The notes under the pieces were generated by a model, which was given only the letters and a program-made list of their open reading frames with translations, was not told where the DNA came from and ran no database searches. Made by a program: the position numbers and the translations under genes. A stretch of 64,000 nucleotides of DNA from NCBI GenBank assembly GCA_017545225.1, contig JAFWPR010000004.1, forward strand, positions 6,115 to 70,114, read 5' to 3'. Numbering within the stretch: position 1 is the stretch's first letter; each line of letters opens with the position of its first letter. This stretch comes from Clostridia bacterium (GTDB taxonomy: Bacteria; Bacillota; Clostridia; Oscillospirales; CAG-272). Shown here one piece after another: positions 4,146-58,787 of this stretch.

Positions 4146-4372
4146 TTCAAATCTCTCCCGCCAAAGGAAAAGCACGCCGATGGCGTGCTTTAGTTATCTG
4201 ATGAAGTCAGCGTAAACAGTTCGAGAAGGTGCACCCCCTTTGCGGTGCCCTCCGCTTGCTGACGCAAGCGGGATAAAATCCGTCGTGAAATGGGACCCGC
4301 ACCCATTTCACTTTGCTTCGCAAAGACCGCCGGATTTTACGGCGGCCGTCCGTTCGTTTTTCGATATTTGAG
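4146..4372 (-). ncRNA. candidate structured RNA, unit A (unclassified; GNAT-proximal copy)
   Basis: Copy of a ~227-bp tandem unit with three-way junction stems at 4275-4282/4331-4338, 4311-4316/4320-4325 and 4286-4294/4302-4310, plus a hairpin at 4252-4259/4264-4271. The conserved 18-mer is at 4194-4211 and a terminator hairpin at 4171-4189. Confidence 0.4.
4163..4190 (-). terminator. intrinsic terminator closing unit A
   Basis: Minus strand reads AAGCACGCCATCGGCGTGCTTTTCCTTTGG. Confidence 0.6.
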
Positions 4373-4600
4373 TTCAAATCTCTCCCGCCAAAGGAAAAGG
4401 ACGCAAATGCGTCCTTATATTATCTGATGAAGTCAGCAGTAGTTGTTAGAAAAGATACACCCCGGGTTGCGGTGCCCTCTGCTTGCTGACGCAAGCAGGA
4501 TAAAGTTCTCTTGAAATGGGTCCCGACCCATTTCACCCGGCTTTGCCGGGACGAGAACTTTACGGCGGTTCGGCGTTCGACTCTCTGCATTTGGAGCGGC
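4373..4600 (-). ncRNA. candidate structured RNA, unit B (unclassified; tRNA-proximal copy)
   Basis: Second copy with stems at 4502-4510/4553-4561, 4536-4540/4546-4550 and 4512-4520/4527-4535, plus a hairpin at 4479-4486/4491-4498. The conserved 18-mer is at 4420-4437 and a terminator hairpin at 4397-4416. Stems differ in sequence from unit A but still pair. Confidence 0.4.
4390..4416 (-). terminator. intrinsic terminator closing unit B
   Basis: Minus strand reads AAGGACGCATTTGCGTCCTTTTCCTTTGG. Confidence 0.6.
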
Positions 4601-6965: not shown

Positions 6966-7017
6966 AAGAAATAACGCGGCGCGGATCTTCATCCGCGCCG
7001 TAATTATAGGTGACGAT

Positions 7018-7527
7018 ATGGATGAAAAGATCAAGCCGTGGGGCGACGAAAGAGTCGAAGGACTGCTGTCTGCGCTCCGCGAGAGGAAACTGACCGTCGG
7101 GACGGCGGAGAGCTGTACGGCGGGTATGATATCTGCGCGTATCGCCGATATTCCGGGCTCGTCCGACGTTCTGCTCGGCGGGATCGTTTCTTATTCGAAC
7201 GGAATAAAGATGAAACTGCTCGGCGTGAGCGAAAAAACGCTCCGCGAACACGGGGCGGTGTCCGAGGAGTGCGCCCGCGAGATGGCGGACGGCGCGCGGG
7301 ATGCGCTCGGGTGCGATATAGCGGTCTCCGTAACCGGGATCGCGGGACCGGGCGGCGGCACGCCCGACAAGCCGGTCGGCACCGTCTGTTTCGGGATCTC
7401 GACGGCGGACGGGGCGCGAACGAAAACGGAGCGTTTCGGCGAAGCCGGAGGCAGAAACGCCGTCCGCACGCTGACCGTTGCGGCCGCGCTCGGGATGATA
7501 GAAGACGAAATAAAAAACCGTGGTTGA
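7018..7527 (+). CDS. pncC: CinA C-terminal domain / nicotinamide-nucleotide amidohydrolase PncC-like
   Basis: Internal ATG at 7018 (MDEKIKPWG...). Contains the conserved TVGTAESCTAGMISARI and SVTGIAGPGGGT motifs of the CinA/PncC domain. Confidence 0.8.
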   Translation: MDEKIKPWGDERVEGLLSALRERKLTVGTAESCTAGMISARIADIPGSSDVLLGGIVSYSNGIKMKLLGVSEKTLREHGAVSEECAREMADGARDALGCDIAVSVTGIAGPGGGTPDKPVGTVCFGISTADGARTKTERFGEAGGRNAVRTLTVAAALGMIEDEIKNRG

Positions 7528-15307: not shown

Positions 15308-15412
15308 TTACAGCGGGATGCGGCAGATGCACCGCAACGGTCGGCCGACCGTTTTCGTCTCCCGGACAACTCCCCGTCCCGGGAGCACTTGACGCGCAAA
15401 TGCCTACTCTGT
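15308..15412 (-). ncRNA. THF (tetrahydrofolate) riboswitch
   Basis: Minus strand reads AGAGTAGGCATTTGCGCGTCAAGTGCTCCCGGGACGGGGAGTTGTCCGGGAGACGAAAACGG...GCGGTGCATCTGCCGCATCCCGCTGT. This matches the conserved THF-I blocks I recall from the Eubacterium siraeum folT riboswitch (AGAGUAG, GCGUUAAGUG, GGGAUG, ACGAA, GCGGUG, GCAUCCGCU). Confidence 0.8.
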
Positions 15413-15438
15413 CATCGCCGTCTTCCGACGGCGTATAT

Positions 15439-19833: not shown

Positions 19834-19906
19834 GCGCCTTTAGCTCAGTGGATAGAGTGCCCGGCTACGAACCGGTAGGTCGTGGGTTCGAATCCCCCAA
19901 GGCGCG
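19834..19906 (+). tRNA. tRNA-Arg (anticodon ACG)
   Basis: GCGCCTTTAGCTCAGTGGATAGAGTGCCCGGCTACGAACCGGTAGGTCGTGGGTTCGAATCCCCCAAGGCGCG, with anticodon loop CTACGAA. Acceptor and D arms pair well. There is one apparent mismatch each in the anticodon stem and T stem as I read it. No CCA is encoded. Confidence 0.85.
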
Positions 19907-19963: not shown

Positions 19964-20010
19964 CGAAGGCGCCCGGTAGTGAATGACAGCCCGGGGGGCT
20001 GTCAGAGCCG
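19964..20010 (+). repeat. GTAG-headed hairpin element, left copy (inverted partner at 21732..21782)
   Basis: cgaaggcgcccGGTAGTGAATGACAGcccggggggCTGTCagagccg. The 19-nt core at 19971-19989 is the exact reverse complement of 21753-21771. Confidence 0.8.
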
Positions 20011-20166
20011 GGCGTGCCCGAAGGAGCGGTCAGTCTTCGTATTTTGCGAAGACTGACTCCGCCGCTCCTGAGACGAATCCCCCTGCTCCGCAGGAGCAGC
20101 ATGTTTGAAAGGCAGAAACTTCGTCGAAAGCGTTTCAATATCCAGTTTGGTGAGAATTATGGTCTA

Positions 20167-21456
20167 TTATTTATCATCTTTGTTTTCTAAGATTTTGCAC
20201 ATTGTTCGAGAATAATCTAAATACTTACCAAAATGATTCATAAGACCATTAGCAATTATCATTGTTTCTGAAAGTCCACGCAAAGTTAAAGGCCAATATG
20301 TAGTGTAATATGTATCATAATCCTCTACACATTGTGGACCAGATAATATATCTCCAAATAGATAATAACAGGCCTTAAAACTGTTAGTTGTTCGTTCTGA
20401 TTGGAACATCCATAACCCTTTTGCTTGCCTGGGGTTAATAAAAATATGGCGATAGGTATATTTGCGAATGAGTATTTGTTCTGTCGAACAGATTTTTATT
20501 TCTTTGATTGCTTTTTCATATATCTCTTTTGTAAAATCAGGATAATTGACTGATAATAATCCGGCTAAATTATCTGCCGTTGAATATAGCAGAATTGCTA
20601 CCTCAGCACTGATGATTTCTTCATTTAGTGAAAGAGGAAGCGGGGTTAATGCCTTGACAAAATAGTCCAAATATTTAGAAAACACATCATACGGCGTGAT
20701 TGTTACTCGAGGATTGTTGTCTTCTTGGGTTTTCAGTAGTGAAAAAAAGCCATGTCGATTATTCTCTTTTTTCTGGTTTTTACGCTCGTTGTTTATTTTT
20801 TGCTGACATACATCAATCTTTTCGTTTGTATCGCGCCAACCAGCAAGTTGAGAGAATGCTTTTATGGCTTTTTCATACCCTTCAATGGTTTTCTTTTGCA
20901 TCTCAAGAATACCACAGTTATATATTTCAACCTTGCGACATATTTCAGCGTTTTGCTGACATTTATTTGCTAGTTTTGCCGAGTTTTTAAAGTCTTTAAT
21001 ACTATTAAATACTTCTGCCAATTCTAAAAATGCTTTTTCTGATCTGGCGGTATCCATAGCTTGTAATGCTTGATTATACTTTTCAGCATTTTTGGCATCT
21101 TCGATCCTTTTATGTATTTGAGACAAATATCCATTGAGTTCTTGAATTATTTCATCATTACCGAAACGTATTGCTTTTAGGTAGTTTTTGTTTTGATCAA
21201 AAGGAAAATCAATTTTTGCAAGATCTTCCTTGCTTCTTACGTGCAATTCCGCCATTAGTTTCCCTATGTATGCGGTCGCATTTTTAGGGTCACAATCAAG
21301 GACTCTTTCACAATATTCATTTGCGTGTTCCCACTCACTGTCTTCAAGGAATATAAAAACTCTTTCAAGCAATGGGTTTTTTTCAATACTTTTTTCTAGA
21401 GCGGAATATACATTCTCACTATTTTTTTCAAGTTCAAAACTTTCTCTGACTGACAT
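20167..21456 (-). CDS. TPR-like repeat protein with an uncharacterised C-terminal domain (AT-rich, probably horizontally acquired)
   Basis: The ATG at 21456 (MSVRESFELEK...) follows GGAGG. The N-terminal half is helical and TPR-like (EWEHANEYCERVLDCDPKNATAYIGKLMAEL). I do not recognise the C-terminal ~190 aa. The gene is visibly AT-rich compared with its flanks. Confidence 0.6.
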   Translation of the reverse strand: MSVRESFELEKNSENVYSALEKSIEKNPLLERVFIFLEDSEWEHANEYCERVLDCDPKNATAYIGKLMAELHVRSKEDLAKIDFPFDQNKNYLKAIRFGNDEIIQELNGYLSQIHKRIEDAKNAEKYNQALQAMDTARSEKAFLELAEVFNSIKDFKNSAKLANKCQQNAEICRKVEIYNCGILEMQKKTIEGYEKAIKAFSQLAGWRDTNEKIDVCQQKINNERKNQKKENNRHGFFSLLKTQEDNNPRVTITPYDVFSKYLDYFVKALTPLPLSLNEEIISAEVAILLYSTADNLAGLLSVNYPDFTKEIYEKAIKEIKICSTEQILIRKYTYRHIFINPRQAKGLWMFQSERTTNSFKACYYLFGDILSGPQCVEDYDTYYTTYWPLTLRGLSETMIIANGLMNHFGKYLDYSRTMCKILENKDDK

Positions 21457-21731
21457 AAAACCTCCAGATAATATATACCAGATTTTATTGTAATTGTAGC
21501 ATACGTGAATTCTATTTTCAAGTAATAGCAATCCGCTGCTTTGTCCATCTACCTAATCATAATTCTTAATGGTGTTTTCTTCTCCTTCCGTCACGGCTTC
21601 GCCGTGCCACTCTCGCCCGCGGGGCTCTGTGCAGACAGAATAAAGAAAAAATGTACTTCATTGCTACCGTCTGTCTGCCGAAGATTGACGCTCTGCGTCA
21701 ATCTTTCCGCGGTCTCTGCCTATTGCATAAG

Positions 21732-21782
21732 CGGCTCTGACAGTCCACCGGACTGTCATTCACTACCGGGCCGTGCGCTTCG
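21732..21782 (-). repeat. GTAG-headed hairpin element, right copy (inverted)
   Basis: cggctctGACAGtccaccggaCTGTCATTCACTACCgggccgtgcgcttcg, which is the reverse complement of the left copy apart from the hairpin loop and a few flank positions. Confidence 0.8.
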
Positions 21783-21858: not shown

Positions 21859-21884
21859 GGAGGCATCAGGGGATGCCTCCCTAC
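21859..21884 (+). repeat. REP-like hairpin GGAGGCATC-AGGG-GATGCCTCC-CTAC
   Basis: 9-bp GC stem followed by CTAC (GTAG on the other strand). Near-identical copy at 56300..56325. Confidence 0.75.
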
Positions 21885-56299: not shown

Positions 56300-56382
56300 G
56301 GAGGCATCAAGGGATGCCTCCCTACGGGGCAGCGTCAATAACTACATTGTGAGACCGTAGGGAGCGATCCCCTGATCGCTCC
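56300..56382. repeat. inverted doublet of REP-like GTAG hairpins (REPIN/BIME-like)
   Basis: 56300-56325 reads GGAGGCATCAAGGGATGCCTCCCTAC on the plus strand. 56357-56382 reads GGAGCGATCAGGGGATCGCTCCCTAC on the minus strand. The two copies are about 31 nt apart in head-to-head orientation. Confidence 0.75.
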
Positions 56383-56387
56383 GTGCG

Positions 56388-57500
56388 TTAGATTTTGATT
56401 TGTCTCAGAATATCGAGTATTTCCCGAAACTCCGGCTTCGCTTTGAATTCATCGGACAACGGATAATGCTCTGTCATCAATTCAAACATGCGCTCGCGCA
56501 TGCTCATCTTTTTGAAGCGTTCTTCCCGTTCGTAATAAAGAGCGATTCTTTCGGATTCGGGTAGATTGTCAAATGATACCGATTGCTCGGCTGCAAGTCG
56601 AAGATAATGAATCGCCTTTTCATCATCTCCGATTTCAGCGTACAAATGACCTAAATGACCGTAATTATAAATCAGATGAATTCTGTTCTTCGACGGTTGG
56701 CTTTCGCTGTCGGTCATACGGAAGATACCGTTCATATGATTTATGGCTTCGATCTTATATTCGGGAGTAAAAGCGTTATCATAATAACAATAGCTGATTA
56801 TTGCGTTCTGAAGGTGGTATGAAAACTCTTCAATGGCGCGTTGCCTGTTTTCATACCACTTTGAAAAGTCGTGGTTTTTCGGATCAAAGTCAAGTTCTGG
56901 CAGAACGGATTCTTTTGAATCGCTCATGGAGGGTAAACTGTCAGCGATGGTTTTTGCCTGTTGTAAGTATTCTTTATCGAATCCAAGACGTTGATACTTA
57001 CGCATAAGGTGTTCGATCATTAAACGTTTTGAGCGAATTCGGATCGCGTCGACCGTACAATAGTTTTGTATTTTTTCATAAGTTGAGGCGATCTGAGTTG
57101 AGATCAGTTCGAGATTCGGATTTGTTTCTCTGCTTTCTGCAATCTGCAGCAATTCCATATACCGAACGAGAATAGGGTACTCGTTCGGGAACTCTTTTAC
57201 GGCTTTTCCGTATTCGCTCAGAACAGAACGTGCGTCCTTAAGTTTCATATTGTCAAACATATCGACGTACTTTTTTATTGTTTCTTCGGTATGGGCTTTG
57301 TCGATCCCGAGTAAAACGTCGACGGAAACCGAGAAGAAAGAAGAAATAACGGAAAGCATCGATAAATCCGGATAACTTTCGCCGCGCTCCCATTTACTGA
57401 TTGTCTGAAAAGAGACGCCGAGAGCTTCGGCAAGCGTTTCCTGTGTCAGATCCTTTTCTTTGCGCATACGTTTAACGTTTTCGCTGAAGTAAATATTCAT
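56388..57500 (-). CDS. XRE-family HTH transcriptional regulator with a TPR-like C-terminal domain (AT-rich, probably acquired)
   Basis: N-terminal HTH (KRMRKEKDLTQETLAEALGVSFQTISKWERGESYP) and a helical-repeat C-terminus (...GHLGHLYAEIGDDEKAIHYLRLAAE). A GGAGAAGG RBS is present. The gene is visibly AT-rich. Confidence 0.75.
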   Translation of the reverse strand: MNIYFSENVKRMRKEKDLTQETLAEALGVSFQTISKWERGESYPDLSMLSVISSFFSVSVDVLLGIDKAHTEETIKKYVDMFDNMKLKDARSVLSEYGKAVKEFPNEYPILVRYMELLQIAESRETNPNLELISTQIASTYEKIQNYCTVDAIRIRSKRLMIEHLMRKYQRLGFDKEYLQQAKTIADSLPSMSDSKESVLPELDFDPKNHDFSKWYENRQRAIEEFSYHLQNAIISYCYYDNAFTPEYKIEAINHMNGIFRMTDSESQPSKNRIHLIYNYGHLGHLYAEIGDDEKAIHYLRLAAEQSVSFDNLPESERIALYYEREERFKKMSMRERMFELMTEHYPLSDEFKAKPEFREILDILRQIKI

Positions 57501-57547
57501 ATGACCTTCTCCGTTTTCTAAAAATGGCGGCGATATCGTCTGATCAA

Positions 57548-57576
57548 ATCATACATCAATACCCGATTCAATTCAA
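57548..57576 (-). promoter_or_regulatory. putative promoter of the XRE-TPR gene (TTGAAT-17-TATGAT) overlapping a TTGAATTGA inverted repeat
   Basis: Minus strand reads TTGAATtgaatcgggtattgatgTATGAT. The -35 lies inside the palindrome TCAATTCAA(57568-57576)/TTGAATTGA(57588-57596). Confidence 0.45.
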
Positions 57577-57685
57577 TAACATTTTTGTTGAATTGATTCT
57601 ACGGACAGGAGAATTATTCACCAGATACAAGAATTCAATTTAAAAACCATATGTTTTTTTATTTAGAATTTGGGAGATTGTTGAA

Positions 57686-57806
57686 TGAATTGATTTCCGC
57701 ATCGTTGTGCGGAAATCATGAATTGCGCCCGGCGGGCGCATGAATTGAGCCCCGCGGCTTTCTCTCCGCGGGGCTCGTGAATTGATTTTGCGCACGCGCA
57801 AAATCA
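57686..57806. repeat. array of four different GC-rich palindromes separated by the heptamer TGAATTG
   Basis: TGAATTG occurs at 57686, 57719, 57741 and 57778. The hairpins are at 57692-57717, 57725-57739, 57747-57776 and 57784-57805. The array abuts the lplA stop codon at 57807. Confidence 0.8.
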
Positions 57807-58787
57807 TTATATATCTTTCGTTACTTCCTGTGCGAGGGCGGCGTTGTCGACGCCCCAGATCGAGAGGGAAGAGTTTTTGATCTTTTCGGAGACGGAACCC
57901 TTTTCAAAAGGCGTGCCGACGAGGGCGCGCAGCGCGTCCGTGCCGTCCCCCGAGAAGAAGTCGCCCTCTGCGGCGACGTCTTTTATCACTCCGTTTTTCA
58001 CGGAAAACAGGAGTTTCACCGTTCCGCCGGGGAGATGGCAGACCTTTTCGACGTCGAACGCCGGGGAGTGAAGAAAGACGGAATCGCGGCCGCGGAAATG
58101 CGCGTCGGCGAGCTCTTCGATCCGCTTTCGGTCTTCCGCCGTCAGCTCGTATCTCTCCGGGCTGCCCGTGACCTCGGCGATCCGCCGTACGAGTTCGTCG
58201 GCGAAACGCTCCGCCGTCATATCGAGCCCCGCCGCCTCCTTTATGTTCGTCACGCGGTCGCGGACCGATTTGATGCTTTTGGACGTTATCTTGTATTCCG
58301 GCGGTCTCGACGCGCGCTCCATCATGCAAAGGTCCGTGTCGAAGAGCAGGGAACCGTGGTGGACCGTCTTTCCGCCGAGCTTGAACTGCGCGTTGCCGGA
58401 GATTTTTTTGGAATCGATCAGCATGTCGTTCCGTCCGCTTATCTCCGCCGGGACGCCCATTCTTCTCAGCGCCTCCGCGACGGGTCTCATATATTCCGAA
58501 AAATCGATCAGCTCGCCGCCTTTTTCGATAAAGGTGTACTGAAAACCGCCCTCGTCGGTGTATATCGTCCCGCCGCCAGAGAGGCGGCGCGTTATTTTTA
58601 TCCCCGCCTCGCGAGCAAGCGCGAGATCGACTTCCTCGAAAACGTTCTGGTACTTGCCGATCATCAGCGTCGGCGCCGTCGACCAGAGCATGAAGACGGG
58701 CGCGGGAAGATCGCGCTCCGCGGCGAAATAGTATTCCGCTCCGAAGTTGAAGGCGGCGTCACGCGAGCCGGTGTCAACGAAGATCAT
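57807..58787 (-). CDS. lplA: lipoate--protein ligase (LplA family), paralog 1
   Basis: 326 aa with motifs RRLSGGGTIYTDEGG and KKISGNAQ (catalytic lysine region) plus an LplA C-terminal domain. Confidence 0.85.
   Translation of the reverse strand: MIFVDTGSRDAAFNFGAEYYFAAERDLPAPVFMLWSTAPTLMIGKYQNVFEEVDLALAREAGIKITRRLSGGGTIYTDEGGFQYTFIEKGGELIDFSEYMRPVAEALRRMGVPAEISGRNDMLIDSKKISGNAQFKLGGKTVHHGSLLFDTDLCMMERASRPPEYKITSKSIKSVRDRVTNIKEAAGLDMTAERFADELVRRIAEVTGSPERYELTAEDRKRIEELADAHFRGRDSVFLHSPAFDVEKVCHLPGGTVKLLFSVKNGVIKDVAAEGDFFSGDGTDALRALVGTPFEKGSVSEKIKNSSLSIWGVDNAALAQEVTKDI

Follow-up and report, generated by a model that had tools for sequence, protein, structure and literature searches.

Immediately downstream of lplA, a lipoate-protein ligase gene in a 64,000-nucleotide stretch of a Clostridia bacterium genome (contig JAFWPR010000004.1; the whole stretch is hereafter called the window), lies an array of four perfect hairpins joined by a constant short sequence (57686..57806, minus strand). 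This array proved to belong to a repeat family that is widespread and dispersed, has a defined structure, and shows strand polarity. We put at roughly 0.55 the probability that it is an orphan copy from a family of "tagged mini-hairpin arrays", which occurs throughout a lineage of uncultured Oscillospirales/Christensenellales-type Clostridia and in their phages and is similar to repetitive extragenic palindromic (REP) sequences and bacterial interspersed mosaic elements (BIMEs).

Structure of the Array

When read on the plus strand, the heptamer TGAATTG starts at positions 57686, 57719, 57741, and 57778, with start-to-start distances of 33, 22, and 37 nt. An inverted-repeat search revealed four inverted repeats, each 100% complementary, one after every heptamer. 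In plus-strand order, these are hairpin 1 (57691-57701/57708-57718, 11 bp, repeat I4), hairpin 2 (57724-57731/57733-57740, 8 bp, I19), hairpin 3 (57747-57757/57766-57776, 11 bp, I7), and hairpin 4 (57783-57793/57796-57806, 11 bp, I5). The spacing and the palindrome after each heptamer agree with an initial annotation of the locus, which had been made from the sequence without database searches. The same annotation described the stems as unrelated, which does not fully hold for hairpins 1 and 4, since both begin with TGATTT and finish with AAATCA.

The full stems take in the TG of each heptamer as well as the CA ahead of the next one, the third hairpin closing with a T.G pair. The true repeating unit is therefore a 5-nt linker, TGAAT, followed by a TG...CA hairpin. 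Since both flanking genes are on the minus strand, in gene orientation ATTCA comes after each hairpin, and the array consists of four [hairpin TG...CA + linker ATTCA] units when read on the strand that is sense for both lplA and the next gene, which encodes a regulator with an XRE-type helix-turn-helix and a helical C-terminal part resembling tetratricopeptide repeats (XRE-TPR). On this strand the array begins directly after the lplA stop codon and terminates with ...ATTCA|TT. It had been placed one base short of that codon; the last hairpin extends to 57806 and touches the stop codon (57807-57809). Unit 1 in gene order (57778..57806) is composed of hairpin 57783-57806 (TGATTTTGCGC/GCGCAAAATCA, 11 bp) and linker 57778-57782; unit 2 (57741..57777), of hairpin 57746-57777 (GAGCCCCGCGG/CCGCGGGGCTC, 11 bp, with an outer T.G / C.A pair) and linker 57741-57745; unit 3 (57719..57740), of hairpin 57724-57740 (TGCGCCCG/CGGGCGCA) and linker 57719-57723; and unit 4 (57686..57718), of hairpin 57691-57718 (TGATTTCCGCA/TGCGGAAATCA, 11 bp) and the terminal linker 57686-57690, which is followed by TT. 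The sequence also reads as a partial extra linker at 57681..57685 (minus strand), where TTGAA abuts TGAATTG to yield TTGAATGAATTG.

The total number of TGAATTG copies in the window is unremarkable (seven, 4.7 expected). Six of the seven fall within 216 bp (57569-57784), and among them is the inverted pair 57569-57575 (minus)/57589-57595 (plus) that had been pointed out earlier and was confirmed by the heptamer count. Single-strand folding of the array predicted four independent hairpins at −46.7 kcal/mol (z = −7.9 versus shuffled sequences). A 55-amino acid open reading frame (ORF) running across the array (57640-57807, minus strand) was rejected as a gene; it has no Pfam match and sits inside the palindromes.

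Distribution and Grammar of the Family

Genomes, one per species, were scanned for three TGAATTG copies 10-40 nt apart, which yielded at least 120 loci. Among the 120 genome loci listed, ca. 45-50 contained hairpin arrays of the same design, all of them in metagenome-assembled genomes (MAGs) of uncultured rumen or gut Clostridia (Acutalibacteraceae, Oscillospiraceae, Ruminococcus, Christensenella UBA3770, Ca. Scatosoma, and Faecousia). The other listed loci were trivial tandem heptamers in other phyla and one CRISPR array (L118; L-numbers designate fetched loci and contigs that were compared with the window, the MAG-derived sources all being fragmented). An independent metagenome scan with a stricter pattern gave 57 family members among 120 loci listed, and with the stricter pattern 11 of 19 viral contigs proved to be members. 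In total, more than 100 arrays of the same design were collected, with uncultured Oscillospirales/Christensenellales-type Clostridia or phage contigs as their sources. The prospect, allowed for in the initial annotation, that the pattern is unique to this locus and invariant is contradicted by these arrays from genomes, metagenomes, and viral contigs. An Rfam 15 search of the whole window at gathering score returned a tetrahydrofolate (THF) riboswitch and a tRNA only, and nothing on the array; a permissive search of 57450-57860 gave only chance-level matches at E ≤ 10, and a literature search for the heptamer gave only unrelated primer and miRNA matches. The family is apparently undescribed, in keeping with the earlier remark that no described element with this layout was known.

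The arrays follow a common grammar. TG..CA bounds were present on 162 of 181 units, and of 186 linkers between adjacent hairpins, 89 matched ATTCA or TGAAT exactly, with close variants making up much of the remainder. As the base after ATTCA is T or C (29/172 give a C.A outer pair), the linker motif can be written CAATTCAYG. Stems are mostly 4-7 bp long and hairpins typically 11-17 nt; 172 of the 240 inter-linker segments are hairpins with no more than one non-Watson-Crick pair, and only 15 of ~800 inner stem pairs are non-Watson-Crick, seven of these being G.T. Heptamer spacing varies from 14 to 40 nt across the family and shows no helical phasing. Uninterrupted runs of four units, as in the window copy, were observed 51 times versus four times for runs of five. 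Most arrays terminate with ATTCA|TT. At many loci double arrays were present, in which a TGAAT run and a short centre are followed by an ATTCA run of similar length (the reverse order also occurs). Such double arrays are two-fold symmetric, with ends AA|TGAAT...ATTCA|TT and no duplication seen, whereas the window copy is a one-sided run. Folding predicted pairing between left and right linkers only for the innermost units of double arrays, and long-range pairing of this kind was set aside as irrelevant to the one-sided window copy.

Strand Polarity of the Hairpin Loops

On the ATTCA strand of arrays from the genome set, GNA triloops outnumbered TNC triloops 40 to 4, GNNA tetraloops outnumbered TNNC tetraloops 19 to 0, and the loop-closing pair was C-G in 131 of 159 hairpins. 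The metagenome set repeated this polarity (52 versus 4 for triloops, 42 versus 1 for tetraloops), the complementary loop type being ~10 times rarer than GNA/GNNA. C-GNA-G and C-GNNA-G constitute a DNA mini-hairpin motif known at the phage G4 origin, ssiA, and N4 promoters, and the melting temperature of d(GCGAAGC)/d(GCGAAAGC) is 76.5 °C versus 39 °C for r(GCGAAAGC); the mini-hairpin is also written d(GCGNAGC)/d(GCGNNAGC), again with 76.5 °C versus 39 °C for the RNA version (PMC13037366). CCGAAGG and GCGAAGC are found literally in many array units. From the GNA/GNNA loops on one strand and the G.T-poor stems, we infer that the element works in a folded, single-stranded form, and as DNA more probably than as RNA.

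The main rival explanation is punctuation of mRNA. According to it, intercistronic hairpins would protect the preceding cistron at its 3' end and the following cistron at its 5' end, an endoribonuclease or an RNA-binding protein would act on the single-stranded linker or the array centre, and in the window the transcript of the lplA operon would be stabilised or terminated. Arrays fill stop-to-ribosome-binding-site gaps exactly, including those of the phage terL/portal block described below and of L097, the window array directly follows the lplA stop codon, and RNA versions of the folds, too, are very stable. One preprint presents E. coli REPs as documented regulators in 3' untranslated regions, which counts in the same direction (bioRxiv 10.64898/2026.03.23.713779). 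Yet the arrays occur in both orientations relative to flanking genes while their loops are strongly strand-polar, and stem pairs of the G.U type are almost absent. C-G-closed triloops and GNNA loops outside the GNRA class obey DNA rather than RNA stability rules; the RNA-type GNRA consensus was fitted by 10 of the 19 tetraloops in the genome set and by 25 of the 42 in the metagenome set. Finally, the window array has no gene-strand U-tract, and Rfam was empty. We therefore judge an RNA-level function to be unlikely, though it is the strongest of the rivals.

Turnover and Dispersal of Arrays

Comparison of strains for gain or loss of hairpin modules, which had been proposed as a check, revealed that unit number differs among close relatives of the locus. 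In L001 and L002 both LplA and the intergenic region are identical to those of the window. In L003, L004, and L008, where the regulator is 78-85% identical, four units are kept and changes are confined to loops: the unit 1 loop is GT in the window and AT in L003, and the unit 2 loop is wholly different in L003, the other ~300 bp being identical to the window. L007 (regulator 84% identical, another upstream gene) has a single tagged hairpin homologous to unit 2, CAGCCCCGCG..CGCGGGGCTG, followed by AATTCA, and L009 (regulator 75% identical, lplA upstream) has one ordinary terminator-like hairpin at the same place and zero heptamers. With one hairpin in L009, one tagged hairpin in L007, and four in the window, L003, and L008, units must have been gained and lost over a short evolutionary time.

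Arrays lie between ORFs in gaps of every type, whether the flanking genes converge or run in the same direction, and also just ahead of a ribosome-binding site; the arrays of the window, L023, and L095 begin at a stop codon. One phage contig, which encodes TerL and a P22-like portal protein, carries three paralogous double arrays within 5 kb that fill the stop-to-ribosome-binding-site gaps before and behind terL as well as the one that follows the portal gene. Two related phage contigs retain the double arrays, and the changes in their stems are compensatory (L232, L258, and L262; compensatory changes also distinguish L016 from L017). The presence of arrays inside a phage structural gene block, and their retention in relatives, argues against terminators.

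The same multi-hairpin modules, in the same order, appear at sites that are otherwise unrelated. One such module, [tgcac..][tgagcc..][tgaaatc..gatttca][tgccgtaaggca]ATTCAtt, was observed in chromosomal loci L022 and L061 and in viral contigs L264, L254, and L256, and [..gagcg..gcgagaaatca][tggcgaagcca][tgaYgc..], in L016, L017, L041, and L121 and in viral L255, L259, and L266. The window array has three unit types in common with L023, whose flanking genes are unrelated, and both start right after ...ATATAA|TG. Such recurrence indicates that arrays are copies of dispersed multi-hairpin elements, the constant linker being common to all subfamilies. Second arrays were found inside the 8-kb loci L022, L036, L044, L047, and L121. 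In L047, inverted ~200-bp double arrays (1890-2077 and 6991-7200) bracket a 4.9-kb segment that encodes a D12-class adenine methyltransferase, QueT, a DUF1256 protein, and a CrtO-like protein; the bracketed segment could be invertible or mobile.

Repeats of this kind might also arise without function, with tandem slippage between the 5-9-nt linkers producing the arrays, intrastrand template switching maintaining perfect palindromes, and no protein involved. Recent tandem unit duplications giving identical or near-identical units are seen in L018 and L097, and loops behave as mutational hot spots, as in the unit 2 loop replaced between the window and L003. Such a by-product would hardly be expected to conserve a 9-nt motif across several bacterial families and phages, to show a sharp run-length ceiling at four units and strand-polar loop composition, or to keep its position in three related phage contigs with compensatory changes. 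We consider this origin, in which any associated protein gene would be hitch-hiking, to be quite improbable.

Two other structured segments of the window can be mentioned here. At 4169-4535 there are two tandem copies of a ~227-bp segment with three perfect hairpins each (e.g., AAAGCACGCC..GGCGTGCTTT, CCGCTTGC..GCAAGCGG, and GTGAAATGGG..CCCATTTCAC), which have no Rfam match at gathering score. The THF riboswitch (RF01831, 85 bits) is at 15309-15413 on the minus strand, upstream of a minus-strand gene.

Association with PF05635 Genes

Clustering of ORFs from array loci identified one specific recurrent neighbour, PF05635, the 23S rRNA intervening sequence (IVS) protein, an Avd-like four-helix bundle of ~120 amino acids. 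The other recurrent families were common ones (S-layer homology domain proteins, ABC ATPases, and response regulators). A PF05635 gene adjoins the array in L071, L092, L121, and L341; in L121 and L341 it is located between two mutually complementary half-arrays. A search starting from the protein gave more than 7900 PF05635 homologues, of which most of the best 120 were on very short contigs. In all four protein-first cases with PF05635 genes, representing three different neighbourhoods, a complete double array was present upstream, ending 15-20 nt before the start codon with the sequence ...ATTCA taaaacGGAGgtttttATG. In L398 (965-1240), a second, directly oriented copy of the left half-array that precedes the PF05635 gene follows immediately behind that gene, and in L341 (100-260) such a direct copy of the upstream left half-array is located next to the gene. 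These repeats could be traces of cassette integration.

Diverged PF05635 genes are preceded by sister arrays with other linkers. The array L387:1-122 has the linker ATATCGA (z = −6.1), and the double array L332:845-1050 has TG...CA hairpins with linkers ATATAAC/ATATCAC; each is directly upstream of a divergent PF05635 gene. The nearest solved structure to the PF05635 protein is PDB 2RLD, an entry with five chains. PF05635 is considered Avd-like and is not known to have a role other than in diversity-generating retroelements (PMC10053308), and in Coxiella PF05635 is the ORF of a "selfish" 23S rRNA IVS bounded by a stem (PMC4990558).

Contigs of less than 2 kb carry most of the close PF05635 homologues, which would be expected if assemblies break at the flanking repeats. 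At L073:4280-5050, in a Chitinispirillaceae MAG from another phylum, a PF05635 gene has direct copies of a composite repeat on both sides, containing 7-8 plain tandem TGAATTG/TGAATTA heptamers without hairpins; when a custom hidden Markov model was used to search for PF05635 near plain tandem TGAATTG repeats of Bacteroidota loci, L073 alone was positive. A published CRISPR-discovery screen names "23S rRNA IVP" among proteins linked to CRISPR arrays (PMC10910872). That link could reflect hairpin arrays called as CRISPR-like repeats.

Search for a Transposase Partner

The initial annotation had compared a constant tag plus a variable palindrome to the sites of HUH/Y1 transposases and REP systems. 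In kind, the comparison is supported by more than 100 arrays, strand polarity, and dispersed modules; the suggested HUH/Y1 partner was not found, in what was a weak test. ORF clustering revealed no recurrent transposase or recombinase, and no recurrent integrase, among array neighbours. A phmmer search of the window and ~250 loci with an IS200 TnpA query, which has low sensitivity for REP-associated tyrosine transposases (RAYTs), gave nothing relevant, its sole match being an unrelated Ferruginibacter locus.

A classical REP/RAYT or IS200/IS605 system, in which a Y1 HUH transposase encoded elsewhere reads the hairpin plus ATTCA on single-stranded DNA and copies or excises units, would nevertheless agree with the tag-and-hairpin logic, with loops that are strand-polar and of the DNA type, with dispersal outside genes, and with the gain and loss of units, and GTAG-tagged hairpins are present in the window. 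What makes it improbable, besides the phmmer result and the lack of a recurrent transposase neighbour, is that arrays are direct runs without BIME-like alternation, that their orientation is unbiased, and that the gene flanked by arrays encodes PF05635 rather than a RAYT.

The hairpins with GTAG at the 5' foot, the classical REP tag, are located at 21859-21884, 56300-56325 (reverse), and 56355-56382 (GGAGGCATC..GATGCCTCC twice and GGAGCGATC..GATCGCTCC once). Two of these lie as an inverted pair where an aminotransferase gene and the XRE-TPR gene converge, in the gap that separates them. REP-like sequences in this genome are thus plausible. At 19971-21770, next to a tRNA gene (19834-19906), there is a ~1.8-kb AT-rich insertion with ~33-bp inverted repeats, whose ends read GCCCGGTAGTGAA plus TGACAGYCC..GGRCTGTCA, i.e., a TG...CA hairpin after TGAA, like one array unit. 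The tagged hairpin that had been noted for this 19971/21753 element is therefore real and present as a TGAA-hairpin at both ends. The only long ORF of the element (20167-21531, minus strand, 454 amino acids) was rejected as a transposase; it is AT-rich and TPR-like, with no Pfam match.

Flanking Genes and the Regulator Palindrome

The gene upstream of the array, lplA, occupies 57807..58787 (minus strand), and the XRE-TPR gene (56388..57500, minus strand) is 186 bp downstream. A σ70-type promoter of the XRE-TPR gene is predicted at 57548..57576 (minus strand), with −35 TTGAAT (57576-57571), a 17-nt spacer, and −10 TATGAT (57553-57548). The predicted promoter is located downstream of the array, so the array is outside that gene's leader. 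L007 and L009 retain the predicted −10 region, GGTATGATTTGAT. An imperfect palindrome contains the inverted heptamer pair, CAATTCA (57569-57575) and TGAATTG (57589-57595); it is situated at 57565..57599 (inverted repeat I2, 15-nt arms, 87% complementary). Its right arm coincides with the predicted −35 hexamer (TTGAAT). Of the left arm, L009 has a part and L007 nothing. This palindrome could be either an operator or the degenerate remnant of an array. With the right arm being the −35 element and the left arm unconserved in L007, the shared heptamer is at least partly a promoter coincidence or such a remnant, and its resemblance to the linker is no evidence that the array is read by the XRE-TPR regulator.

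An interpretation specific to this locus, put forward earlier, treats TGAATTG copies as XRE-TPR half-sites interleaved with redundant lplA terminators. The inverted pair over the regulator's predicted −35 and an XRE gene just downstream of the array in L016 are compatible with it. An adjacent XRE gene was, however, present at only 1 of 44 array loci, the two XRE-like ORFs of the metagenome set were more than 2 kb from arrays, and arrays occur beside unrelated genes and in phages, there within the structural block. The variable heptamer spacing without helical phasing, the inclusion of the heptamer TG in the stem, and the nature of the palindrome arms also disagree with operator half-sites. As to terminators, a consensus scan found no site within the array on the minus (gene) strand and matches on the plus strand only, and gene-strand U-tracts are missing; canonical T-run terminators are present elsewhere in the window. 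The locus-specific idea is essentially excluded. Known regulator sites that resemble the repeat, namely ArgR (TGAAT-N4-ATTCA), IHF, CodY, Rex, and cre, were considered and dropped, because the arrangement does not fit and no link to gene function was apparent.

The window and L003 are identical through the lplA 3' end, the array, and the promoter, and diverge abruptly ~30 nt ahead of the regulator start codon (57480-57530 in the window, 2970-3000 in L003), the regulators being 78% identical. The divergence point has the appearance of a recombination breakpoint, at which one regulator allele was exchanged for another.

Interpretation

Several observations weigh against the view that the window array is an orphan copy of a REP/BIME-like family acting as folded single-stranded DNA. 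Many arrays finish just ahead of a ribosome-binding site, which leaves room for a role at the RNA level, and L097 has T.G-closed units on the sense strand. None of the window array loops (CAACGA, GCC, AGAGAAAG, and GT) is of the GNA type, and the stems are longer than the family norm; the argument for single-stranded DNA thus rests on the family and not on the window copy. Array orientation relative to neighbouring genes is unbiased, with ~7 sense and 7 antisense cases among co-directional flanks, and, taking gene orientation as a proxy for the direction of transcription or replication, a replication-strand-specific process is unsupported. No target-site duplication or clean empty site was found in the comparison of related loci, and the difference between the window and L009 resembles replacement of a terminator-like hairpin more than a clean insertion. 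With all sources being fragmented MAGs, the copy number per genome can be put only roughly, at one array per 50-60 kb. With respect to the proposed partner, there is no PF05635 gene in the 64-kb window, and the protein-first cases are close homologues (76-85% identical) that may share their 5' regions by descent, so the association is correlative.

With these points taken into account, the orphan-copy reading still appears to us to be the best explanation. In the mechanism that we envisage, hairpins of any length would bring successive ATTCA linkers to a constant spacing, and the linkers would serve as recognition sites of an oligomeric protein acting in trans. The PF05635 Avd-like four-helix bundle is the best candidate for the reader, as its genes carry arrays upstream of or around them and diverged paralogues carry other linkers. 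If the copy in the lplA 3' untranslated region has a local effect, such as a block to 3' exonucleases or insulation of the two genes, that effect would be secondary, much as it is for E. coli REPs. A more specific model is that arrays and PF05635 make up a two-component system, in which an oligomeric, non-enzymatic nucleic-acid-binding protein reads the 5-7-nt linkers between DNA mini-hairpins, each paralogue having its own linker (CAATTCA, ATATCGA, or ATATAAC), and cassettes and orphan arrays spread through chromosomes and phages. We offer this model tentatively and regard it as possible rather than probable.

To our knowledge, work on REPs and other structured intergenic repeats has dealt almost exclusively with Proteobacteria. 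The arrays would represent a differently built counterpart carried by abundant uncultured gut and rumen Clostridia and their phages. Their grammar, CAATTCAYG linkers between TG...CA mini-hairpins, is simple and searchable. Arrays break assemblies and could be mis-called as terminators, small RNAs, or CRISPR-like arrays. They also provide a testable handle on PF05635/Avd-like proteins, which have thousands of homologues; if the model is true, reading of linkers would be the first function assigned to this very large orphan family, and IVS elements would be explained. For the window, it follows that the array should be annotated neither as an XRE-TPR operator nor as an lplA terminator stack.

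Comparison with Known Systems

Tandem intrinsic terminators share with the window array a GC-rich hairpin directly after a stop codon. They differ in that the window array is devoid of a U-tract on the gene strand, and in that family arrays are also located inside operons, before ribosome-binding sites, and in both orientations. CRISPR arrays have identical repeats of 23-50 nt and unique spacers, whereas here only 5-9 nt are constant and palindromes make up the rest; the true CRISPR array L118 is quite different.

Integron attC sites have complementary short core sites, a variable middle, and a position between a stop codon and the next cassette, as do the arrays, and they act as a folded single strand with polarity, as the arrays probably do. 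Their core is RYYYAAC/GTTRRRY rather than TGAATTG/CAATTCA, they fold as one bulged hairpin instead of many small ones, and the arrays, with which no integrase was seen, are scattered and do not make up one cassette array. Elements of 23S rRNA IVS type resemble L121 and L341, in which PF05635 is inside an element bounded by complementary sequences; the arrays, however, are outside rRNA genes, have mini-hairpin flanks in place of one long stem, and are mostly gene-free. DNA mini-hairpin initiation signals (the phage G4 origin, ssiA, and N4 promoters) have the same C-GNA-G / C-GNNA-G loops on one strand. Such sites are present as one or a few copies at origins or promoters, while the arrays have a constant linker and chromosome-wide dispersal.

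The pneumococcal BOX and neisserial Correia elements are multi-copy, structured, intergenic repeats of 100-200 bp with two-fold symmetry, variable modules (boxB), and no coding gene. The arrays share with them the intergenic structure, the length, the symmetry, the variable number of modules, and mostly the lack of a coding gene, the modules being mini-hairpins joined by a 5-nt linker. Miniature inverted-repeat transposable elements usually have terminal inverted repeats of 20-30 bp, which were not found in the arrays, and, as stated above, neither was a target-site duplication.

The closest likeness is to REP/BIME sequences with their RAYT proteins and to the REP doublets known as REPINs. In both cases, extragenic palindromes with a constant tag at the stem form composite arrays after stop codons and between genes, the repeats are lineage-specific with many orphan copies, and a single gene, the partner or, for the arrays, the candidate partner, is flanked by them; the inverted doublets resemble REPINs. 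The differences concern how the repeats are built. The tag of the arrays is a 3' ATTCA (CAATTCAYG), that of REPs a 5' GTAG/CGTC. REP palindromes are imperfect and 20-40 nt long, while array hairpins are shorter, perfect, and differ from one another within an array. REP clusters alternate in orientation, whereas the arrays are direct runs of 2-4 units with at most one orientation switch. Finally, the gene associated with REPs encodes a Y1 transposase, and that associated with the arrays, which are hosted by Clostridia and their phages, encodes a PF05635 four-helix bundle.

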